DNA of 64,000 nucleotides from a virus. Lineage: Duplodnaviria; Caudoviricetes. The stretch covers positions 44,613-108,612 of IMG/VR virus record IMGVR_UViG_3300010998_000002; one strand, 5' to 3'. This document shows, piece by piece, positions 2,025-45,191 of the stretch; within the stretch, counting starts at the first letter, position 1; each line of letters starts with the position of its first letter. Made by a program: the position numbers and the translations under genes. The notes below the pieces were generated by a model. It had not been told where the DNA came from and did not search any database. It worked only from the letters and a program-made list of their open reading frames with translations.

Positions 2025-2543
2025 CTAATTGTCAAGAGTAGAATATTTAGTATAATGTATTGCTTTAATTCCATTAGCACGATACATTTCTACGTTACGA
2101 ATATCATCATCTATTGCCAAATCAATAAAAACTTTAGGTATAATATGAGTATGTAAAATATTATTTTTTACTTCGGCAGTAGGTGAATAATCACAAGTAT
2201 TTCTCATATAAAGATATTTTTTAATCCTATTCCAACCTTTAATATTTCTAAATACTGCATTTAATTGACCTTCCGTAATTTCTCGCATTTTATGTATATC
2301 TTCTCTAGCAGTAATAAAATAAATATTTTGCAAACCTTTTTTAATAAGAATATCAATAAAATCTATCATATCGGCATTTTCACTCACAAGATAATAATGG
2401 TCGTGGTATCTATCCCAACCTTCTCTAGTATTATCTATTGGAATATATTTTTCCCATTCCCTGCTATCTAAAACACAATTATCAATATCTAAAATTAAAT
2501 TTTTAATATTATCTGGTACGATTTCACCATTTAACTTAACCAT
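2025..2543 (-). CDS. HAD-family phosphatase (like the PseT 3'-phosphatase domain)
   Basis: LILDIDNC (DxD motif I), FITAR (motif II), AIDDDIRNVEMY (motif IV). Confidence 0.75.
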   Translation of the reverse strand: MVKLNGEIVPDNIKNLILDIDNCVLDSREWEKYIPIDNTREGWDRYHDHYYLVSENADMIDFIDILIKKGLQNIYFITAREDIHKMREITEGQLNAVFRNIKGWNRIKKYLYMRNTCDYSPTAEVKNNILHTHIIPKVFIDLAIDDDIRNVEMYRANGIKAIHYTKYSTLDN

Positions 2544-3138
2544 TTTTCCAGCCTTCCTTTATTAAAATACTCTCACGATTTTCATCTATGTTATGATAAA
2601 TTTTTCGCATATTCATAACATCATATAAATTCATTATTTGCATATTATTAGCATCTAAACCTATATCCATTGCCCTTAAAAATGGTTTGATTTTTCCATG
2701 CGTATGTCCGAAACAATGAAAAGCATCTTGGTAAAACCCTTCCCATTCTAATAATGGTAAATGTTGCAAATGAAACAAATTATCATTCCACCGAATTTTA
2801 TAAGCCTGTTTACAATCTTGAATCACGCCCATTTGCCATAATTTTCGCAACTGTTTTTCTTTATCATGATTGCCAATGCTAACTTTTATTATAGGTGTTA
2901 ATGACCGGATAAATTTTATTAACTCCTCATCTTCATCCTTAAAACCAATATCGCCTAAAATATAAAGTGTAGCACTTTTACTCTTAATCGTTGAATTAAT
3001 AATATTCCTTATATATTGTGTATGCTCCTGCGGATTACTAAAACCTCTTAAAGAAATAGTCCTATTAATAATATTAGACAAATGCAAATCTGCCGTAACA
3101 TATATATCTTCAAAATTATGTAATGTATTAAATCCCAT
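2536..3138 (-). CDS. calcineurin-like metallophosphoesterase
   Basis: ADLH, ILGD, GNHD, HLP and FGHTH metal-binding motifs. Confidence 0.9.
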   Translation of the reverse strand: MGFNTLHNFEDIYVTADLHLSNIINRTISLRGFSNPQEHTQYIRNIINSTIKSKSATLYILGDIGFKDEDEELIKFIRSLTPIIKVSIGNHDKEKQLRKLWQMGVIQDCKQAYKIRWNDNLFHLQHLPLLEWEGFYQDAFHCFGHTHGKIKPFLRAMDIGLDANNMQIMNLYDVMNMRKIYHNIDENRESILIKEGWKNG

Positions 3139-3518
3139 TAATTACTCTCTTTCGGAATATTATCAACTCTAATAACATGCACGATTCTTTCACCGTTTTT
3201 AGCAATATTAATTGTATGCTTTGTACCCTTACTAATACCATTCCAAAATGCTATTACCATATCAGCATGTCTTACAATATCATGATTTCTTAAATAACCG
3301 GCACACTTACCATGACTATGCCATTTTGCTCTATAAATTTCTTTGGCATAATTATATTTATCTGCAAATTGTTCGGCTAATGTATCAACCCCTCTTGCAC
3401 CACCAGAAACAATAATAAATTCTAAATCTTCTTTTGGCATCAATTCTTTAACTTTAGATTCTACATAATCATAATTATTAAAATCTCTACTGCCAATAAT
3501 CGCTATTCTATATTCCAT
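3138..3518 (-). CDS. SLOG family (YspA/DUF2493-like) protein
   Basis: IAIIGSRDF, VSGGARGVD, AGYLRN, AFWNGISKGT; likely start MEY at 3518. Confidence 0.85.
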   Translation of the reverse strand: MEYRIAIIGSRDFNNYDYVESKVKELMPKEDLEFIIVSGGARGVDTLAEQFADKYNYAKEIYRAKWHSHGKCAGYLRNHDIVRHADMVIAFWNGISKGTKHTINIAKNGERIVHVIRVDNIPKESN

Positions 3519-11379: not shown

Positions 11380-13020
11380 ATGTTTTCACACGAACAAATT
11401 GTTGATTTCAAAAATAAAGTTAATAAACGAGAATTTTATAGACAATTTTTAGAATTAAGACAAAGCGGTAAATTGTTATGGGCAGTATGCCCATTTCATA
11501 ACGACCATAGTCCTAGTATGTCTATTGATGAAGATACAGGAATTTTTAGATGTTGGTCTTGTGGTGCGCATGGTGATATTTTAGATTTCTATCAAAGATT
11601 AACAGGCAAATCATTGTCCGAATCAATAATGGATATTGCTAAAAGTCAAAATATAAAAATTGAAATATCGGAAGAATTACGCAAAGAATTAGAGTTAAAA
11701 CGTGCATTATATTTGCTTAATGATAACATTGCAAATTTGTATCAACGAGCATTGGCGCAAAATAAAGAAGGGCAACAGTATTTAATCTCTCGTAATTTTT
11801 CACTTGATATAATCAAACAGTTTAGAATTGGTTATATTCCATCATTACCACTAAAGGATTTGGGCGAACAATTTATACCACTTCTTAAAACTGCGCAACT
11901 TGTTAATGTAAATGAAGATGGAAGTGTTTATAATTATTTTGGTACTCATAGAATTTCTATACCATTTTTTGATGAATACGGACATATTGTCGGATTTTCT
12001 TCAAGAACAACTGATAATCGTTATCAACCAAAATATTTACATTCACGAACAAGTAAACTGTTTCAAAAAAGTGAATTACTTTATGCTTATAATTTTGCAA
12101 AAGAAAAAATTAAAGAAACAAAATCAGTAATTATTACAGAAGGACAAATAGATTGTATTAGATGCCATCAATACGGCATAACAAATACTATTGCTACTTG
12201 TGGTTTGGCTTTATCAGACAAACAATTAAAATTATTAAAAACTTATGTTAAAAATTATTATATTATAGTTGAAGATAAAGCCGGTGAAAATATGGTTGAT
12301 AAATATTATGATGTTATATCAACAAGTAATTATTGGGCGAATATTAAAATTATTCGTTTATATGAAGGTGATGAAAAATGTGATGCTGATGAATTTTTAC
12401 AGAAATATGGTAAAGGTGCATTTTTAGATAAGATTAAACATGCTAAACCATACCATGAATATAAACTTATTGATTCATTAAAAAATATTAATTATAAAAC
12501 CATTGAAGAAAAAAAGTTTCATATTTATAATAATAGAAAATATATTGCTAAAATTACACATCCGGTAGATAAAAAACAGTATATTGAATTACTAGCAGAA
12601 AAATTAGAATTACCGGAAAATGATGTACGAAAGATTATTGCTAGGTCAGAATCTACCGATAATGATATTAAAATTGGAGATTATGATGATAGGCGCACAA
12701 CATCACAAAAATATATTTTAGCAACATTCTTTTCGGAATTTGGTGTGCAAACAGCATACGAAGTCATGCATAATAAATTAAAAATTTATAATAGACTTGA
12801 CAATAAATTCAGAAAAATATATAATAAAATAGTAGATGTCATTTTACTATACGGAGCAAATGCAGATATTATAAATGCAGTTCATAGTTTAGATATTATG
12901 ACACAAGAGGAATTATCTATACTAGATGATGCCTATTTTAAGAGAGATGAATTTAATTATCTTGAAGATGAAGAAGAATTAGCACTTTTTCTCAAAGACC
13001 AAATAGAAAATTTAAGGTAA
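11380..13020 (+). CDS. dnaG: DNA primase
   Basis: CHC2 zinc finger CPFHNDHSPS...CWSC, RISIPF, GFSSR, PKYLHS, TEGQID TOPRIM domain. Confidence 0.95.
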   Translation: MFSHEQIVDFKNKVNKREFYRQFLELRQSGKLLWAVCPFHNDHSPSMSIDEDTGIFRCWSCGAHGDILDFYQRLTGKSLSESIMDIAKSQNIKIEISEELRKELELKRALYLLNDNIANLYQRALAQNKEGQQYLISRNFSLDIIKQFRIGYIPSLPLKDLGEQFIPLLKTAQLVNVNEDGSVYNYFGTHRISIPFFDEYGHIVGFSSRTTDNRYQPKYLHSRTSKLFQKSELLYAYNFAKEKIKETKSVIITEGQIDCIRCHQYGITNTIATCGLALSDKQLKLLKTYVKNYYIIVEDKAGENMVDKYYDVISTSNYWANIKIIRLYEGDEKCDADEFLQKYGKGAFLDKIKHAKPYHEYKLIDSLKNINYKTIEEKKFHIYNNRKYIAKITHPVDKKQYIELLAEKLELPENDVRKIIARSESTDNDIKIGDYDDRRTTSQKYILATFFSEFGVQTAYEVMHNKLKIYNRLDNKFRKIYNKIVDVILLYGANADIINAVHSLDIMTQEELSILDDAYFKRDEFNYLEDEEELALFLKDQIENLR

Positions 13021-13032
13021 AAAAATCTACTC

Positions 13033-13061
13033 TTGACTTTTAAAATTAAATATGATAATAT
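13033..13061 (+). promoter_or_regulatory. promoter upstream of the large ncRNA candidate
   Basis: TTGACT-N17-TAATAT with TG extension. Confidence 0.7.
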
Positions 13062-13221
13062 AATAATGTTGAACGATGACAAGTAATTCAGAAGTAATTG
13101 TAAAATGTAGTGAAGCAACCATTCAAACTAACTGCAAGTAGATTTTGAGTACCTGTGGATTTGACGAAGGACTACCTCTTTAGGCATATAGAATGAACGA
13201 AGGTAATTAAGTAAACAATTT

Positions 13222-13234
13222 AGAACTTTGAAAA
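13222..13234 (+). promoter_or_regulatory. boxA-like antitermination motif
   Basis: AGAACTTTGAAAA resembles rRNA-operon boxA (cyanobacterial GAACCTTGAAAA) and abuts the 25-bp stem. Confidence 0.5.
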
Positions 13235-13707
13235 TCAAATATTATAATGAGAATCTGTGCGAGAATAATCCTTTCTAGGGATAATCGGATGCAAACAGAG
13301 TTTTGCAATAGACTTCATAGGCTTGTCAAAGCCGAATGTTTGTAGGTTATTTTGATGGAGATACCGTAACGCACACGTTGAATCGTAGAACGCTACTTTG
13401 AATTTATGGCTTATATGGCTGTATTGGATAAGAATGTCAGTATATTTGCTGGACTATCCTAGCGTATAGGATAGATTAGATTTTGAACGTGGTACGCTTG
13501 CATAAGGCAGTTTGTAGTAAATGGCTATATTACATTCAGATGATGTCATAGAATGTGAGCATATAGGTAATCACTCCTACCGGCACTTTAAGTATTTTCT
13601 TGACGAAGAAAATATGGCTGATGGCGGAATAACGGCAAATGGCTATATCATCAAGATTTGTGGGTAACAGATAACTCCCATTAGATTCTCATTATAATAT
13701 TTGATTT
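13232..13707 (+). ncRNA. large structured non-coding RNA candidate (ROOL/GOLLD-like size class; family not identified)
   Basis: No ORF; perfect 25-bp inverted repeat 13232-13256 / 13683-13707; internal hairpins at 13290-13307, 13320-13333, 13454-13474, 13593-13614; richer in G+C than its flanks. Confidence 0.75.
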
Positions 13708-13730
13708 GATAGTTTTTTGAGAGGGTTAAA

Positions 13731-14480
13731 GTGGAAGTAAAATTAATAAGTTATAATGATAATATCATAGATATTATTCATACGGCTTGTCGTACTTGTT
13801 ATTCAAAATTAACACCGATAGAAATCTATAATAAAGATACTTACGCTGGTGAAGAATTTGATATATCAATAGAACAAGTTAAAGAAGATAGAATAAAAAA
13901 AATTGAACTTATTAAAAAAGTTATGAATAGTGGGCATTTAAGCACTACAGAACATGCTTATTTTACTTTCGCTATTGCCGGAGTATCAAGAGCATTATTG
14001 GCTCAAATCACAAGACATAGGCTTTGTAGTTTTTCTGTTCAAAGTCAAAGATATGTAGAAATTAAAGAAAACCTAGAAGATTTAATTGTATTAAATACTT
14101 GCGGTACTAAATATCAAAAAATAGAATTATTATCAAAATATTTTGTATTTAAAGATGATAATGATTTATTTATTGATAGTTGCTTAAATGCTTTAATTCA
14201 ATATCTTCAATTAACAAAAGAAGGATATAAAGCCGAAGATGCAAGAAATGTTTTACCAAATGCAACAAAAACAAATATTGTTTTATCTTGCAATTTAAGA
14301 CAATTAATGCACATTTGTAATTTAAGATTATGTAAACATGCACAATTAGAAGTTAGAACTATGGTTGGTAAAATGAAAAATGAAGTTTTATCTAAACCGG
14401 AATGTGAATGGTTAAAGCCATATTTAGTTCCTAATTGTAAAAATTGTACTGATTTTAGAGATTGTAAGGAGATTAAGTAA
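13731..14480 (+). CDS. thyX: FAD-dependent thymidylate synthase
   Basis: GHLSTTEH, ThyX signature RHRLCSFSVQSQRY, EDARNVLP, HAQLEVR. Confidence 0.96.
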   Translation: MEVKLISYNDNIIDIIHTACRTCYSKLTPIEIYNKDTYAGEEFDISIEQVKEDRIKKIELIKKVMNSGHLSTTEHAYFTFAIAGVSRALLAQITRHRLCSFSVQSQRYVEIKENLEDLIVLNTCGTKYQKIELLSKYFVFKDDNDLFIDSCLNALIQYLQLTKEGYKAEDARNVLPNATKTNIVLSCNLRQLMHICNLRLCKHAQLEVRTMVGKMKNEVLSKPECEWLKPYLVPNCKNCTDFRDCKEIK

Positions 14481-14639
14481 ATGACGTGGTTAGCAATTTT
14501 AACAGCATTTTCACCAACATTAGCCTTTAAAGGTTTAACATTAACAACATTATGGAGTTGGTTCAACGTGCATCCATTTTGGGCATTTTTCACAATTGGA
14601 ATGTTATGCAAATCAACACATATCAATATAAATAAATAA
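14481..14639 (+). CDS. small hydrophobic protein (52 aa)
   Basis: AGGAG RBS, ATG at 14481, MTWLAILTAFSPTLAF...; below the ORF-track cutoff. Confidence 0.55.
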   Translation: MTWLAILTAFSPTLAFKGLTLTTLWSWFNVHPFWAFFTIGMLCKSTHININK

Positions 14640-14652
14640 GAAAGGATTAATA

Positions 14653-15609
14653 ATGTATTTTTTAAATCGTGGTGATACAGATACATATATTACAATTCAT
14701 AAAGAAGATGAGCAAAATTTTTATGATATTATCAATTCTGGAATTTTTACAAAAGAAAATAAATTTCGTCTTATTAAAGATAAAGCCGAAATTAAAAAAA
14801 TTCTTGAAGAAAGATATGCAAGCCGAAACAGAGGAGAAGATTATACTGCCGGTTTACCTTCTGCAACATTAATTTCTTCTTCATTATTTCCGTATAATTT
14901 AGATTCGCATGCACCACATAATCATGTTGCTTTATTAAGATGGAATAATGATATTGATGTTGCAGAAATGCAGGGGCAAAAAGTAACAAATAAACTTTCA
15001 ACCGATAGTGGTACTTTTATTCATGAAGTTTTAGAACTTGCATTAAAAGATAGGCAAACAAGAGTTTTTGACAAGTCTAAAGGTTTGCAGAAATATATTG
15101 ATATGGTTTGCCAGGATAAAAATATTATTAATCTTATAGAAAATTTTGAAGAAAGAAAACCATATTTTGTAGAAGTTGCAACTAATGTTTTATCAAAATT
15201 TTTTAAAGAAGAAGTGCCTTTAATAGACCCAATTTTTGATGAATTATTTTTAGTAAATAAAGGCATACAGGGTGCAATTGATTTAGTTAATTACAAAAAT
15301 GGACATTTGTATATTTCGGATTTTAAAACATCTAAAAAACCTATGTCTTATAATCAAGTTGCCGGTAAAGGCTATTTGCGACAATTATATATATATAGTA
15401 GAATGCTTTTAAATGCTAAAATTATTTCAAAAAAAGAATATGATAATTTGCATTTTCAAATTTATTTCTTTAATTGGAATAGTGGTAATTCTGCAATATA
15501 CGAATTTCCAAAATCGGAAGTTGATAAATCAAAAGGCTACTGCGAATTTATATTAAAATGGTATTATAAAATGCGAGATATGGATATTGATATTCATGAA
15601 GTAATATAG
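14653..15609 (+). CDS. PD-(D/E)XK exonuclease (RecB/Cas4-like fold)
   Basis: GTFIHEVLE, QGAIDLV, ISDFKTS, RQLYIY. Confidence 0.82.
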   Translation: MYFLNRGDTDTYITIHKEDEQNFYDIINSGIFTKENKFRLIKDKAEIKKILEERYASRNRGEDYTAGLPSATLISSSLFPYNLDSHAPHNHVALLRWNNDIDVAEMQGQKVTNKLSTDSGTFIHEVLELALKDRQTRVFDKSKGLQKYIDMVCQDKNIINLIENFEERKPYFVEVATNVLSKFFKEEVPLIDPIFDELFLVNKGIQGAIDLVNYKNGHLYISDFKTSKKPMSYNQVAGKGYLRQLYIYSRMLLNAKIISKKEYDNLHFQIYFFNWNSGNSAIYEFPKSEVDKSKGYCEFILKWYYKMRDMDIDIHEVI

Positions 15610-38324: not shown

Positions 38325-38739
38325 CTAATAATGCACCTACTGTTCCTAACGATGTTTCTTCTTCGCCAATATAAGTTCTATAACAATGAACGATACCGCC
38401 TGCCGTCATAGGCTGACTAGGAACAATAACTTTAAATTTAACATTGTCAAATAAAGAAGTTATTGTTGCACCATTTGGAATAGGCTTTTTAGAAAAAATA
38501 CGTCTAGTAACTTTACTTCGTAAACCTTCCGGAATATCTTTTAAATCATCTTTATAATTAATTGGAATTAATGCCAAATTAATAGGTGTATCAACAGATT
38601 CGCCTTCAATTTCACCTTCTTCAAAATCATAAGTAATTTCTGATGGTACGGAAATTATACAGGGTTGCGCACCTAAATTATGGTCTATCATATCATCAAC
38701 TACTTTTTTAAACTTATTCCAATTTGGTGGTAACGGCAT
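38317..38739 (-). CDS. head closure or neck protein
   Basis: DLKDIPEGLR motif; synteny. Confidence 0.6.
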   Translation of the reverse strand: MPLPPNWNKFKKVVDDMIDHNLGAQPCIISVPSEITYDFEEGEIEGESVDTPINLALIPINYKDDLKDIPEGLRSKVTRRIFSKKPIPNGATITSLFDNVKFKVIVPSQPMTAGGIVHCYRTYIGEEETSLGTVGALLDE

Positions 38740-38742
38740 TGT

Positions 38743-39402
38743 TTATTTCCTATTAAATTCTGCTATCATTTTATCTATTTGAGTTAAAAATTTTAGGCTT
38801 TGTTCTTTAACCATTCCGGATTCTGCGGTTCGTTTATTTTTACCACGAATAGCCTGTAACATTTTTGAACTATCTATTAATGGAAAATCAAAACCTTTAA
38901 TTTTTTGTGTAATTTCAGAGTTTCGTGCCTGTTGATTAGTCATTACTTCTCTTTGTTTTACTGCCATTTCTTCTGCAATTGCATCTATGACATGTTTGGA
39001 ATTTGTACGACCACCACGAATTGTTGTTTTATTAAGATAAGTTATAATAAACGCCCTTACTCTATCTCGCATATCATTCCACGCATCCTTTAACTTCCAT
39101 AACATAATAAATGGTCGTGATGGTCGGTGTAAAATTGCACCCTTTGGAATAGTAATTGTATCTCCATCTGCCGTAGGAATAGTGGCTGTTTTAGTTTGTG
39201 TCCAACTAGCATCAGTTTCTAAAACACTTGCTAATTTGGCTAATTTTATTTTTTTATTTCCACTACCGGCAGATACCCATTGCCTACCCTCTTGTCGCCA
39301 AATTCCAGAACAAGCAGAAAAAGCCTGTAACCAAATAATTTTTTTGACTAAATTCTTTAAACCTTTTCTCTTGCAAATAATTTGTACGGTTGATTGCGCC
39401 AT
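38743..39402 (-). CDS. neck or virion morphogenesis protein
   Basis: PSRPFI and NSEITQKIKGFDFPLIDSSKMLQAI motifs. Confidence 0.65.
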   Translation of the reverse strand: MAQSTVQIICKRKGLKNLVKKIIWLQAFSACSGIWRQEGRQWVSAGSGNKKIKLAKLASVLETDASWTQTKTATIPTADGDTITIPKGAILHRPSRPFIMLWKLKDAWNDMRDRVRAFIITYLNKTTIRGGRTNSKHVIDAIAEEMAVKQREVMTNQQARNSEITQKIKGFDFPLIDSSKMLQAIRGKNKRTAESGMVKEQSLKFLTQIDKMIAEFNRK

Positions 39403-43752: not shown

Positions 43753-45191
43753 TATTTATCCTCATCTTCTTTTTTCTGTTCATCATCTTCTATTGGTTCT
43801 GCTTCGTCTGGATTGACAGCACTATCGGCTGTTTTTTCCGCTAATTCTTCTGAACCGTATGCCCAAGTATTGACTTCTCTACGTCTTTGATAGTTATCAA
43901 ATTCTTCTTGTGTTATAGTAGGTGTATCATTACCAAGTAATCGTTTCAGAATTGCGTTACACATACCTAATGTTGGCGGTACTAAACCAGATTTATCGGC
44001 AGATTGAATAAATAACATTAAGTTAGTTAAATCCAAATCACCAATTTCAGAAAATTCAATAGTTGGCATAAGAGATAAATCTATTAAATTCTTTTCCAAA
44101 AGCGTTGGAATTAATTTAAAATTGATTACTCTTTTTATTTCATCTAGCATTTCTTTTACTAAATTAGTAAAAATTTTAATTTTAGATTGTGAAAAACTAC
44201 CAGAAATACCAGATTTTTGTGCTGTTAAAAAGAAATCAGATAATAATGCAACGGAGATATTTCTATCTTCTCTTGCGATAATTTTATCTGCATCTGGTAT
44301 ATTTCCTGCTCCACTAGAAATAATGCCTACTTTAATATATTCTGGATGTGCAATTGCTACGTCTGTACCGGCTCTAATATTTTGCGCCGTATCTTTTATC
44401 CATTTTTGAGTTTGTAAATATGCAGGGTTTTTTGTTGTAGGGTCTAGGATTGGTGCTGGCGCTTGAATATCCAGCAACCCATCAAATCCTCTCTCATATC
44501 GTATATCTTCATTTAAAGAAGTCCGCTTTTTCTTTAAATACGGTGTTACACAATTGAGATATAAACTAACACCCTCTGGATTATTATTAAAACTACGATG
44601 TTTGAAGTGTAAAAGTTTTTCATAAGGAATTTCTTTTTCTTCAAATTTATTGGGGTCTTTTTGGCTCACGCTAATTATATTGCGGTAGTTTTCGTCATAA
44701 TTCCACTTTGTAATACTGCCCTGATAACGAGATGCTAGTTTTGCTAACCCTATAAGTCCATCGTCAAACTTTGAACTTTTATCTTTATCCTTATTTTCTC
44801 CGTTTCTAACCTTATAAACAGGTTCTATAATAGCAAAGCCATACTGTGAGGCGGTTAAAGCATTAGCAATTACTTCTTGAAACGAATGATTAAGGTCTTG
44901 AAATAAACATTGGTCTATAAAATCTGCAATTTTTTTTGCTTCGGCTGTATCATCTTTAGGTTTTATACTCCATTTAACAGAAGATGCAGTTGATTGATAC
45001 ATATTATTAAAAGCACCAATGGTTGAGTCAAATTTAACCATTTCTTCTAATAATTTTATCTTTTTCGGCCCCCGTAATGGAATTATACTTTCTTCTCTTA
45101 CTTTTCCATTACTAATGGCTATACCTGTATAACCTAATTCTTCGCCAACAGTTTTTTTTGTTTTATAACTTGTACGATTTCTTTTTGACAT
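43752..45191 (-). CDS. portal protein (DUF935/Mu gp29-like)
   Basis: ELGYTG, YGFAIIEPVYK, IPYEKLLHF, NNPEGVSL, LIPTLLEKN. Confidence 0.85.
   Translation of the reverse strand: MSKRNRTSYKTKKTVGEELGYTGIAISNGKVREESIIPLRGPKKIKLLEEMVKFDSTIGAFNNMYQSTASSVKWSIKPKDDTAEAKKIADFIDQCLFQDLNHSFQEVIANALTASQYGFAIIEPVYKVRNGENKDKDKSSKFDDGLIGLAKLASRYQGSITKWNYDENYRNIISVSQKDPNKFEEKEIPYEKLLHFKHRSFNNNPEGVSLYLNCVTPYLKKKRTSLNEDIRYERGFDGLLDIQAPAPILDPTTKNPAYLQTQKWIKDTAQNIRAGTDVAIAHPEYIKVGIISSGAGNIPDADKIIAREDRNISVALLSDFFLTAQKSGISGSFSQSKIKIFTNLVKEMLDEIKRVINFKLIPTLLEKNLIDLSLMPTIEFSEIGDLDLTNLMLFIQSADKSGLVPPTLGMCNAILKRLLGNDTPTITQEEFDNYQRRREVNTWAYGSEELAEKTADSAVNPDEAEPIEDDEQKKEDEDK

Follow-up and report, generated by a model that had tools for sequence, protein, structure and literature searches.

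A conserved structured RNA between dnaG and thyX

The 710-bp gap between the primase gene dnaG and the thymidylate synthase gene thyX of an uncultured gut phage almost certainly encodes a large, conserved, structured RNA that is read from the plus strand. The stretch of DNA analysed here, referred to as the window, is 64,000 nt long and runs from base 44613 to base 108612 of a complete phage genome of 108,612 bp that has direct terminal repeats (IMG/VR record IMGVR_UViG_3300010998_000002); positions are those of the window unless stated otherwise. The phage and the clade of uncultured phages to which it belongs are from the gut. The gap spans positions 13021-13730, and within it a structured core of about 20 helices (13257-13682, plus strand), recognized by RNAalifold and by pair counts with controls, is enclosed by the two arms of a long closing helix, here called P1. 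Judged from the organization of the locus, it is somewhat favoured (probability roughly 0.55) that this is a stable RNA which is produced in the manner of ribosomal RNA (rRNA), excised by host RNase III, and acts in trans.

The preliminary description of this DNA, made from its letters and a list of open reading frames (ORFs), had claimed that the gap contains no ORF. Only short ORFs of 31-53 amino acids (aa) were found there. In the homologues described below, reading frames stayed free of stops for at most 34-95 aa and no ORF was conserved among them, in line with that claim. The G+C fraction was 0.36-0.38 inside the gap versus about 0.25 in the flanks.

A search for homologues, which the preliminary description had suggested, identified full-length copies of the RNA in 14 further contigs representing about nine independent lineages. 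All of them were located between dnaG and thyX, and the nhmmer E-values ranged from 1e-17 to 1e-138. The resulting 15 sequences were aligned with MAFFT (alignment A3; pairwise identity 50-99%, median 59%), and a consensus fold of 120 pairs in 22 helices was predicted with RNAalifold. Two controls were used, in which the 3′ partner of each pair was slid by 1-3 columns or the alignment columns were shuffled 500 times. In the predicted fold, 91.6% of the cells were paired, compared with 37-42% after sliding. Changes on both sides were seen in 82 pairs versus 31-38 in the slid controls, and the covariation score was 0.53 versus approximately 0.10. None of the 500 shuffles reached any of the observed values, and a separate re-alignment of the 3′ domain (alignment A5) gave the same covariation result. 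Within the predicted pairs, G-U or U-G combinations occurred 265 times versus 36 times for A-C or C-A. The alifold energy was -146.6 kcal/mol on the plus strand versus -106.0 kcal/mol on the reverse complement, a loss of 40. Because G-U pairs greatly outnumber A-C combinations and the reverse complement folds worse, the functional form should be the plus strand, and an RNA rather than the DNA itself. A large structured plus-strand RNA is what the preliminary description had proposed, with covariation among relatives as the check, and the strong covariation in the 15 sequences bears this out.

Helices of the structured core

All helices of the core lie on the plus strand. In the 5′ part, helix 6 (H6) pairs 13289-13297 with 13337-13345 and encloses H7 (13298-13303 with 13310-13315) and H8 (13320-13324 with 13329-13333); H9 pairs 13374-13379 with 13486-13491. 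The long-range helix P2 (13349-13357 with 13649-13657), identified by a covariation scan together with RNAduplex, could be formed in 15 of 15 sequences despite quite different letters. Columns 144-170, 245-300 and 338-366 of A3 are variable and poorly aligned; P2 rests on the RNAduplex result. In the 3′ domain were found H16 (13521-13528 with 13639-13646), H18 (13564-13567 with 13576-13579), H20 (13592-13601 with 13606-13615) and H22 (13660-13664 with 13677-13681). H16, in which AUGGCUAU pairs with a second copy of AUGGCUAU, was 93% paired in A5, with a G-U pair replaced by A-U in five sequences and a C-G pair replaced by U-A in L091. Unpaired words at the junctions, for instance GAAUAA, were invariant.

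The individual hairpins suggested earlier fared unevenly. The GGCTT/AAGCC hairpin (13320-13333, H8) and the TATTTTCTT/AAGAAAATA hairpin (13592-13615, H20) were confirmed by double changes at five of five and ten of ten pairs, respectively, and covariation likewise upheld the TAGG/CCTA pairing (13564-13579, H18). The proposed TGCAAA/TTTGCA hairpin turned out not to be a conserved pairing, since covariation favours H6, formed by ATGCAAACA (13289-13297) with TGTTTGTAG (13337-13345). The CTATCCTA/TAGGATAG hairpin sits in a variable insertion that is absent from the relatives L072 and L085, and the TACATTC/GAATGTG hairpin falls in a variable, poorly aligned part. In the suggested GUGA/UCAC pseudoknot, three pairs were invariant, and the fourth was G-C, A-U or G-U in five sequences and G-A in eight.

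Self-complementary motifs were observed in two of these helices. In five lineages (L079, L081, L090, L074 and L091), the loop of H20 is 7-10 nt long and carries the 6-nt palindrome UAGCUA or UAAUUA, two forms that differ by a symmetric double change by which self-complementarity is kept. The same palindrome forms the 5′ strand of H16 in the five lineages, and both strands of H16 represent the quasi-palindrome AUGGCUAU. These palindromes possibly serve intermolecular kissing or an alternative intramolecular pairing. The self-complementary motifs are the only pointers to a function and bear the hallmark of self-association through kissing loops, as in ROOL and GOLLD. Two other candidate interactions were rejected. 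Kissing of the H8 loop (UGUCAA) with the H20 loop (UUGACG), attractive in the window sequence, was dropped on finding UGUCAA retained where the H20 loop reads UAGCUA, and five AUGGCU repeats were dismissed as protein-binding sites because only two copies, those forming H16, are conserved across the family.

A long closing helix in every lineage

The arms of P1 occupy 13232-13256 (5′ arm) and 13683-13707 (3′ arm) on the plus strand and were found by an inverted-repeat search and by covariation. As the preliminary description had noted, the two 25-nt arms form a perfect inverted repeat; they are 100% complementary and enclose 426 nt. A perfect 25-bp repeat within 700 bp has a chance expectation of the order of 1e-8 or less. 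Across the family, P1 was 96.6% paired over 24 aligned pairs, 15 of which showed double compensatory changes. In L090, matching insertions of approximately 12 nt in both arms lengthen the duplex by about 12 bp. The closing duplex was 24-38 bp long and nearly uninterrupted in every lineage, with RNAduplex energies of -29 to -43 kcal/mol in which some pairing beyond P1 is included. The innermost part of P1 has a conserved run of purines (GAGA) on its 5′ side, opposite which the 3′ arm is CU-rich. P1 is long enough to be an RNase III substrate, the length criterion being a largely continuous RNA duplex of about 20 bp or more. No RNase III gene was found in the phage genome.

Distribution and linkage to thyX

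Relatives of the phage were traced by a DnaG search of 5.8 billion proteins, which returned a graded series with at least 48 dnaG clusters at 65% identity or above, and the contigs of twelve relatives were taken. Wherever DnaG was at least 65% identical, every locus had a gap of approximately 620-1,020 bp before thyX and a full-length match to the RNA. The sister clades, with DnaG identities of 54% and 46%, lacked both the RNA and thyX; in them, either other genes follow dnaG at once or a gap of 336 bp intervenes. The RNA is thus confined to the phage clade that also carries thyX. It was present in one copy in the genome, and its position did not differ among the relatives. The 336-bp gap of one sister-clade contig (L082 4636-4971) contained a consensus promoter, followed by a hairpin that is rich in G+C and has a T-run, and beyond this a small ORF; it may give rise to a short transcript.

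Searches of other collections yielded few further members. When IMG/VR was searched with thyX and dnaG, a single relative was obtained, the 104.7-kb phage L004, which has the same gene order. Two DNA pattern scans of IMG/VR derived from the first two-sequence alignment gave chance matches only, besides this known relative. A refined 22-base pattern recovered two further members in JGI metagenomes and, in IMG/VR, the known relative only. The refined pattern found no copy of the RNA among the 185,579 species genomes of GTDB, and no match to the RNA was obtained by blastn in GenBank phages (50,697 records).

Promoter, leader and a boxA-like word

A sigma-70-type promoter was predicted by a consensus scan at 13033-13061 on the plus strand (TTGACT, 17 nt, TAATAT, with an extended-10 TG), from which transcription is inferred to start near 13066-13069. 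A promoter of the TTGACA ... TGATATTAT type was located directly after the dnaG stop in 12 of 12 homologue loci examined, so that the promoter previously assigned to the gap was both recovered as a predicted site and found to be conserved. The 5′ leader that follows (13068-13222, plus strand), defined by upstream comparison with MAFFT and RNAalifold, varied between 119 and 482 nt among the homologues. It includes a module of about 100 nt (~13085-13200) that is common to only some lineages, and two alternative modules were distinguished. The module of the window, shared with L072, L080, L088 and L090, has the core ACUAACUGCAAGUAGAU..GAGUACCUGYGGA; the other, present in L073, L075 and L079, reads UAGAACUUCAUGAAG...GAACAUUGGACACUUCAUG. 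The leader of L004 contains neither. Such modules might act in antitermination or be additional structured RNAs.

The leader ends at a boxA-like 12-mer, GAACTTTGAAAA (13223-13234, plus strand), which overlaps the first 3 bp of P1. Its family consensus is GAAC(T/A)TTGA(A/T/C)AA and its spacing to P1 is zero in 15 of 15 sequences, which agrees with the position directly before the stem that had been claimed for it. The degenerate motif occurred at only two sites in the 108.6-kb genome, both of them RNA loci. The 12-mer matched the boxA of Bacilli 16S leaders, G[AT]TCTTTGAAAA, and the cyanobacterial boxA, GAACCTTGAAAA, at 11 of 12 bases each; no exact match to a host boxA was found. The 9-nt boxA core, CTTTGAAAA, was identical to that of Bacilli 16S leaders. 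Positions 2-3 of the 12-mer differ from the Bacilli leaders, and position 5 differs from the cyanobacterial boxA. The motif G[AT]TCTTTGAAAA was found 45-75 nt before the 16S start in 44 of 401 Bacilli genomes, with no occurrence of the reversed-pattern control. In an RF39-like Bacilli metagenome-assembled genome (MAG), the real 16S leader consists of a promoter, a hairpin and GATCTTTGAAAAC, followed by 72 nt to the 16S gene.

Downstream of the RNA, thyX starts 11-45 nt past P1 in every homologue. A scan of 12700-14700 detected no terminator between P1 and thyX, and its sole terminator-like sites were hairpins internal to the RNA (13320-13333 and 13454-13474). The RNA and thyX are therefore probably co-transcribed.

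Genomic setting

The RNA is embedded in a replication and nucleotide-metabolism module with the gene order thymidine kinase (TK), dnaG, gap, thyX and PD-(D/E)XK nuclease. The dnaG gene (11380-13020, plus strand) was assigned by the Pfam domains Zn_ribbon_DnaG, DNAG_N and Toprim. On the same strand, thyX (Pfam Thy1, E=1.9e-50) extends over 13731-14480, with a GTG start at 13731, and is preceded by a Shine-Dalgarno sequence GAGAGGG (13719-13725). No transfer RNA (tRNA) or transfer-messenger RNA (tmRNA) was detected in the 64-kb window by ARAGORN.

Within the 3′ part of dnaG, a perfect 12/12 sigma-70 consensus (TTGACA, 17 nt, TATAAT) is present at 12797-12825 on the plus strand, approximately 240 bp upstream of the RNA promoter. 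In the relative L080, a 278-aa NUMOD3-domain protein is encoded between the thymidine kinase gene and dnaG (1663-2499); the other relatives are without it. The NUMOD3 domain is typical of homing endonucleases. The cellular DnaG proteins closest to that of the phage (33-35% identity) come from RF39-like MAGs that carry the labels 'uncultured Bacilli', 'Tenericutes' or 'Mycoplasma sp. CAG:611', which represents weak evidence on the host.

A second locus with the same cassette

The other boxA-like site of the genome belongs to a second RNA locus, located outside the window on the minus strand at genome positions 38,400-39,240. It carries the same promoter and an identical 14-mer, AGAACTTTGAAAAT, the promoters of the two loci being nearly identical. 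This locus (L022 ~2440-3240, minus strand) comprises approximately 500 nt with no ORF, no Rfam match and a fold z of -2.6, and it is followed by tRNA-Met(CAT), then a weak tRNA-like element and finally a terminator. In a related phage, G404 (L186 1480-2086), the cassette, with the boxA variant GCACATTGAAAA, lies directly before tRNA-Met, tRNA-Glu and tRNA-Asp, and the ~500-nt RNA of the second locus is missing.

Relation to known RNA families

No match to any of the 4,227 families of Rfam 15 was obtained at gathering thresholds over the whole window. At E<=10 the region returned only noise, and at E<=0.5 there was no match in nine homologue loci. The covariance models of ROOL (RF03087) and GOLLD (RF01998) found nothing in the window, the region or the homologue loci, and there was likewise no Rfam model match to OLE, RNase P RNA, tmRNA, 6S, group I or II introns, HEARO or raiA. 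The preliminary description had left the choice between a divergent GOLLD or ROOL member and a new class, to be settled with Infernal and Rfam; with these results membership of GOLLD or ROOL falls away and the new class stands. No published description of the RNA was found in the literature on large phage RNAs. A published catalogue of short IMG/VR RNAs (mean length 67 nt) required at least three IMG/VR regions, and the dnaG-thyX RNA has two. It is a new family among the large ornate phage RNAs. Its distinctive traits are the boxA-like word, the long closing duplex and the position ahead of thyX.

A proposed route from transcript to stable RNA

In bacterial rRNA operons, boxA is bound by NusB/NusE, and a long duplex between leader and spacer is cut by RNase III. 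The layout of the dnaG-thyX RNA is consistent with that of such an rRNA precursor. The proposal of a stable RNA is based on this layout, on the fact that a tRNA operon is headed by the same cassette, and on a P1 that is long and near-perfect in every case. Transcription of the plus strand would begin at the strong sigma-70 promoter just after dnaG and proceed through the variable leader to the boxA-like word. On the model of rRNA and tRNA operons, the word would recruit host NusB/NusE-type factors, which would let RNA polymerase read through the structured RNA into thyX. RNase III would then cut the perfect closing duplex and release a discrete stable RNA of approximately 430-475 nt and a separate thyX messenger RNA (mRNA); the host enzyme is proposed since the phage has no RNase III gene of its own. 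The freed RNA would act in trans, and the favoured role is that of a structural or scaffold RNA like ROOL or GOLLD, possibly one that self-associates.

Several observations weigh against this account. The family is narrow and limited to a single phage clade. The fold z including the closing stem was approximately -5.5 on both strands, and for the core without P1 it was -1.7 on the plus strand and -1.3 on the minus strand, values that are marginal against shuffles. Single-sequence energetics thus add little beyond the stem, and the case therefore rests on the comparison with relatives. Promoter-like hexamers were not above shuffles in this AT-rich DNA (16 found, 13.8 expected), so that the promoter call is founded on conservation. 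The boxA-like word was one base off every real boxA checked, and none of the Bacilli leader matches listed reads GAAC. In addition, ten of the 15 sequences have a GACG tetraloop in H20 and no palindrome there.

Alternative explanations

The strongest alternative, which we nevertheless regard as unlikely, is that the RNA is a cis-acting element in the 5′ untranslated region of thyX that stays on the mRNA and controls its stability or translation. It might, for example, block 5′ exonucleases, or the pyrimidine-rich 3′ arm of P1 (UUCUC-type) might pair with the Shine-Dalgarno sequence of thyX. The short distance from P1 to thyX in all homologues without an intervening terminator, and the joint presence or joint absence of the RNA and thyX across clades, speak for such an element and count against a freed, trans-acting RNA; the GAGA purine tract opposite the CU-rich tract at the inner end of P1 would also fit. 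However, a near-perfect P1 of 24-38 bp is far too stable to switch, no alternative terminator/anti-terminator and no conserved helix sequestering the Shine-Dalgarno sequence were seen, and the spacer from P1 to the Shine-Dalgarno sequence varies in both length and sequence. Approximately 20 conserved helices are also far beyond known leaders and riboswitches, and the promoter-boxA cassette serves a tRNA operon as well.

A more specific version of the stable-RNA proposal, also built on the palindromes, appears improbable. Here the AUGGCUAU strands of H16 and the H20 loops would assemble the RNA into an RNA-only dimer or cage with a fold unrelated to ROOL and GOLLD, produced in bulk through host rRNA antitermination and RNase III. 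In a variant of this idea, a retained boxA leader would also titrate NusB/NusE from the rRNA operons of the host. Self-association was rated low because of the ten sequences with the GACG tetraloop.

It is very unlikely that the RNA is catalytic or self-processing, as a large ribozyme or a degenerate intron-like element would be. Its size and helix density are within the range of large ribozymes, its unpaired junction words such as GAAUAA are invariant, and thymidylate synthase genes of phages are well known to harbour group I introns. Nevertheless, there was no match to Intron_gpI, group II introns, RNase P or self-cleaving ribozymes even at E<=10. The element is intergenic rather than inside an ORF, and so has no exons to join, and P1 closes the whole element, which is unlike group I or II introns.

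Still less credible is a replication primer or origin RNA comparable to ColE1 RNA II or the T4 origin R-loops, in which a transcript made beside the primase gene would prime or open an origin. The replication and nucleotide-metabolism module around the RNA and its own strong predicted promoter would be in keeping with this function. In contrast, thyX follows directly and neither an AT-rich unwinding element nor a set of iterons lies downstream, the cumulative GC skew has no inflection at the locus, and the sister clades replicate without the RNA. Finally, a DNA-level element, either a cruciform site or a miniature transposon whose terminal inverted repeats would be the 25-bp arms, could be imagined from the perfect repeats around approximately 430 bp, but is effectively refuted by its single copy per genome at a constant locus, the lack of a target-site duplication (flanks AA|...|GA), the covariation of the internal helices, the lengthening of the arms by paired insertions, and a G-U versus A-C asymmetry (265 to 36) that fits only a plus-strand RNA.

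Significance and comparison with known systems

Known natural RNAs that exceed 400 nt and have dense conserved structure are few. The formation of RNA-only assemblies by ROOL, GOLLD and OLE is a recent finding, and a further, unrelated covarying class offers a new structure target that bears on what large phage RNAs do. The order of promoter, boxA, duplex and mRNA provides a testable model of how a phage uses the stable-RNA machinery of its host, and the strict linkage to thyX is a genetic handle without counterpart in ROOL or GOLLD. The restriction of the family to one clade limits its immediate reach.

The dnaG-thyX RNA resembles ROOL in being large (ROOL is approximately 500-600 nt), multi-helical and encoded by phages of the gut or rumen. 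ROOL assembles into cages of RNA alone that are stabilized by kissing loops and A-minor contacts (10.1101/2024.12.08.627333), and the dnaG-thyX RNA has self-complementary loop motifs that hint at self-association. Unlike ROOL, it is closed by a helix of 25-38 bp after a boxA-like word and runs into a protein gene. With GOLLD it shares the character of an ornate phage RNA, and GOLLD is often found beside tRNA-Met, as is the second RNA locus of this phage; the dnaG-thyX RNA differs in length (approximately 475 nt versus more than 800 nt for GOLLD) and in architecture. It also departs from both in its setting, since it does not lie beside tRNAs and occupies the dnaG-thyX position in all homologues.

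Two processing systems provide further points of reference. In early transcripts of T7 and lambda, RNase III cuts at double-stranded sites and thereby separates upstream RNA from downstream mRNA. The cuts fall in short local hairpins that contain internal loops, whereas P1 closes a conserved domain of 426 nt. In layout, the RNA is like the bacterial rRNA operon, in which a promoter, a leader and a boxA word are followed by the 5′ strand of a long enclosing duplex in the same order; in the phage, however, the enclosed RNA is not rRNA and the unit continues into the thyX mRNA.

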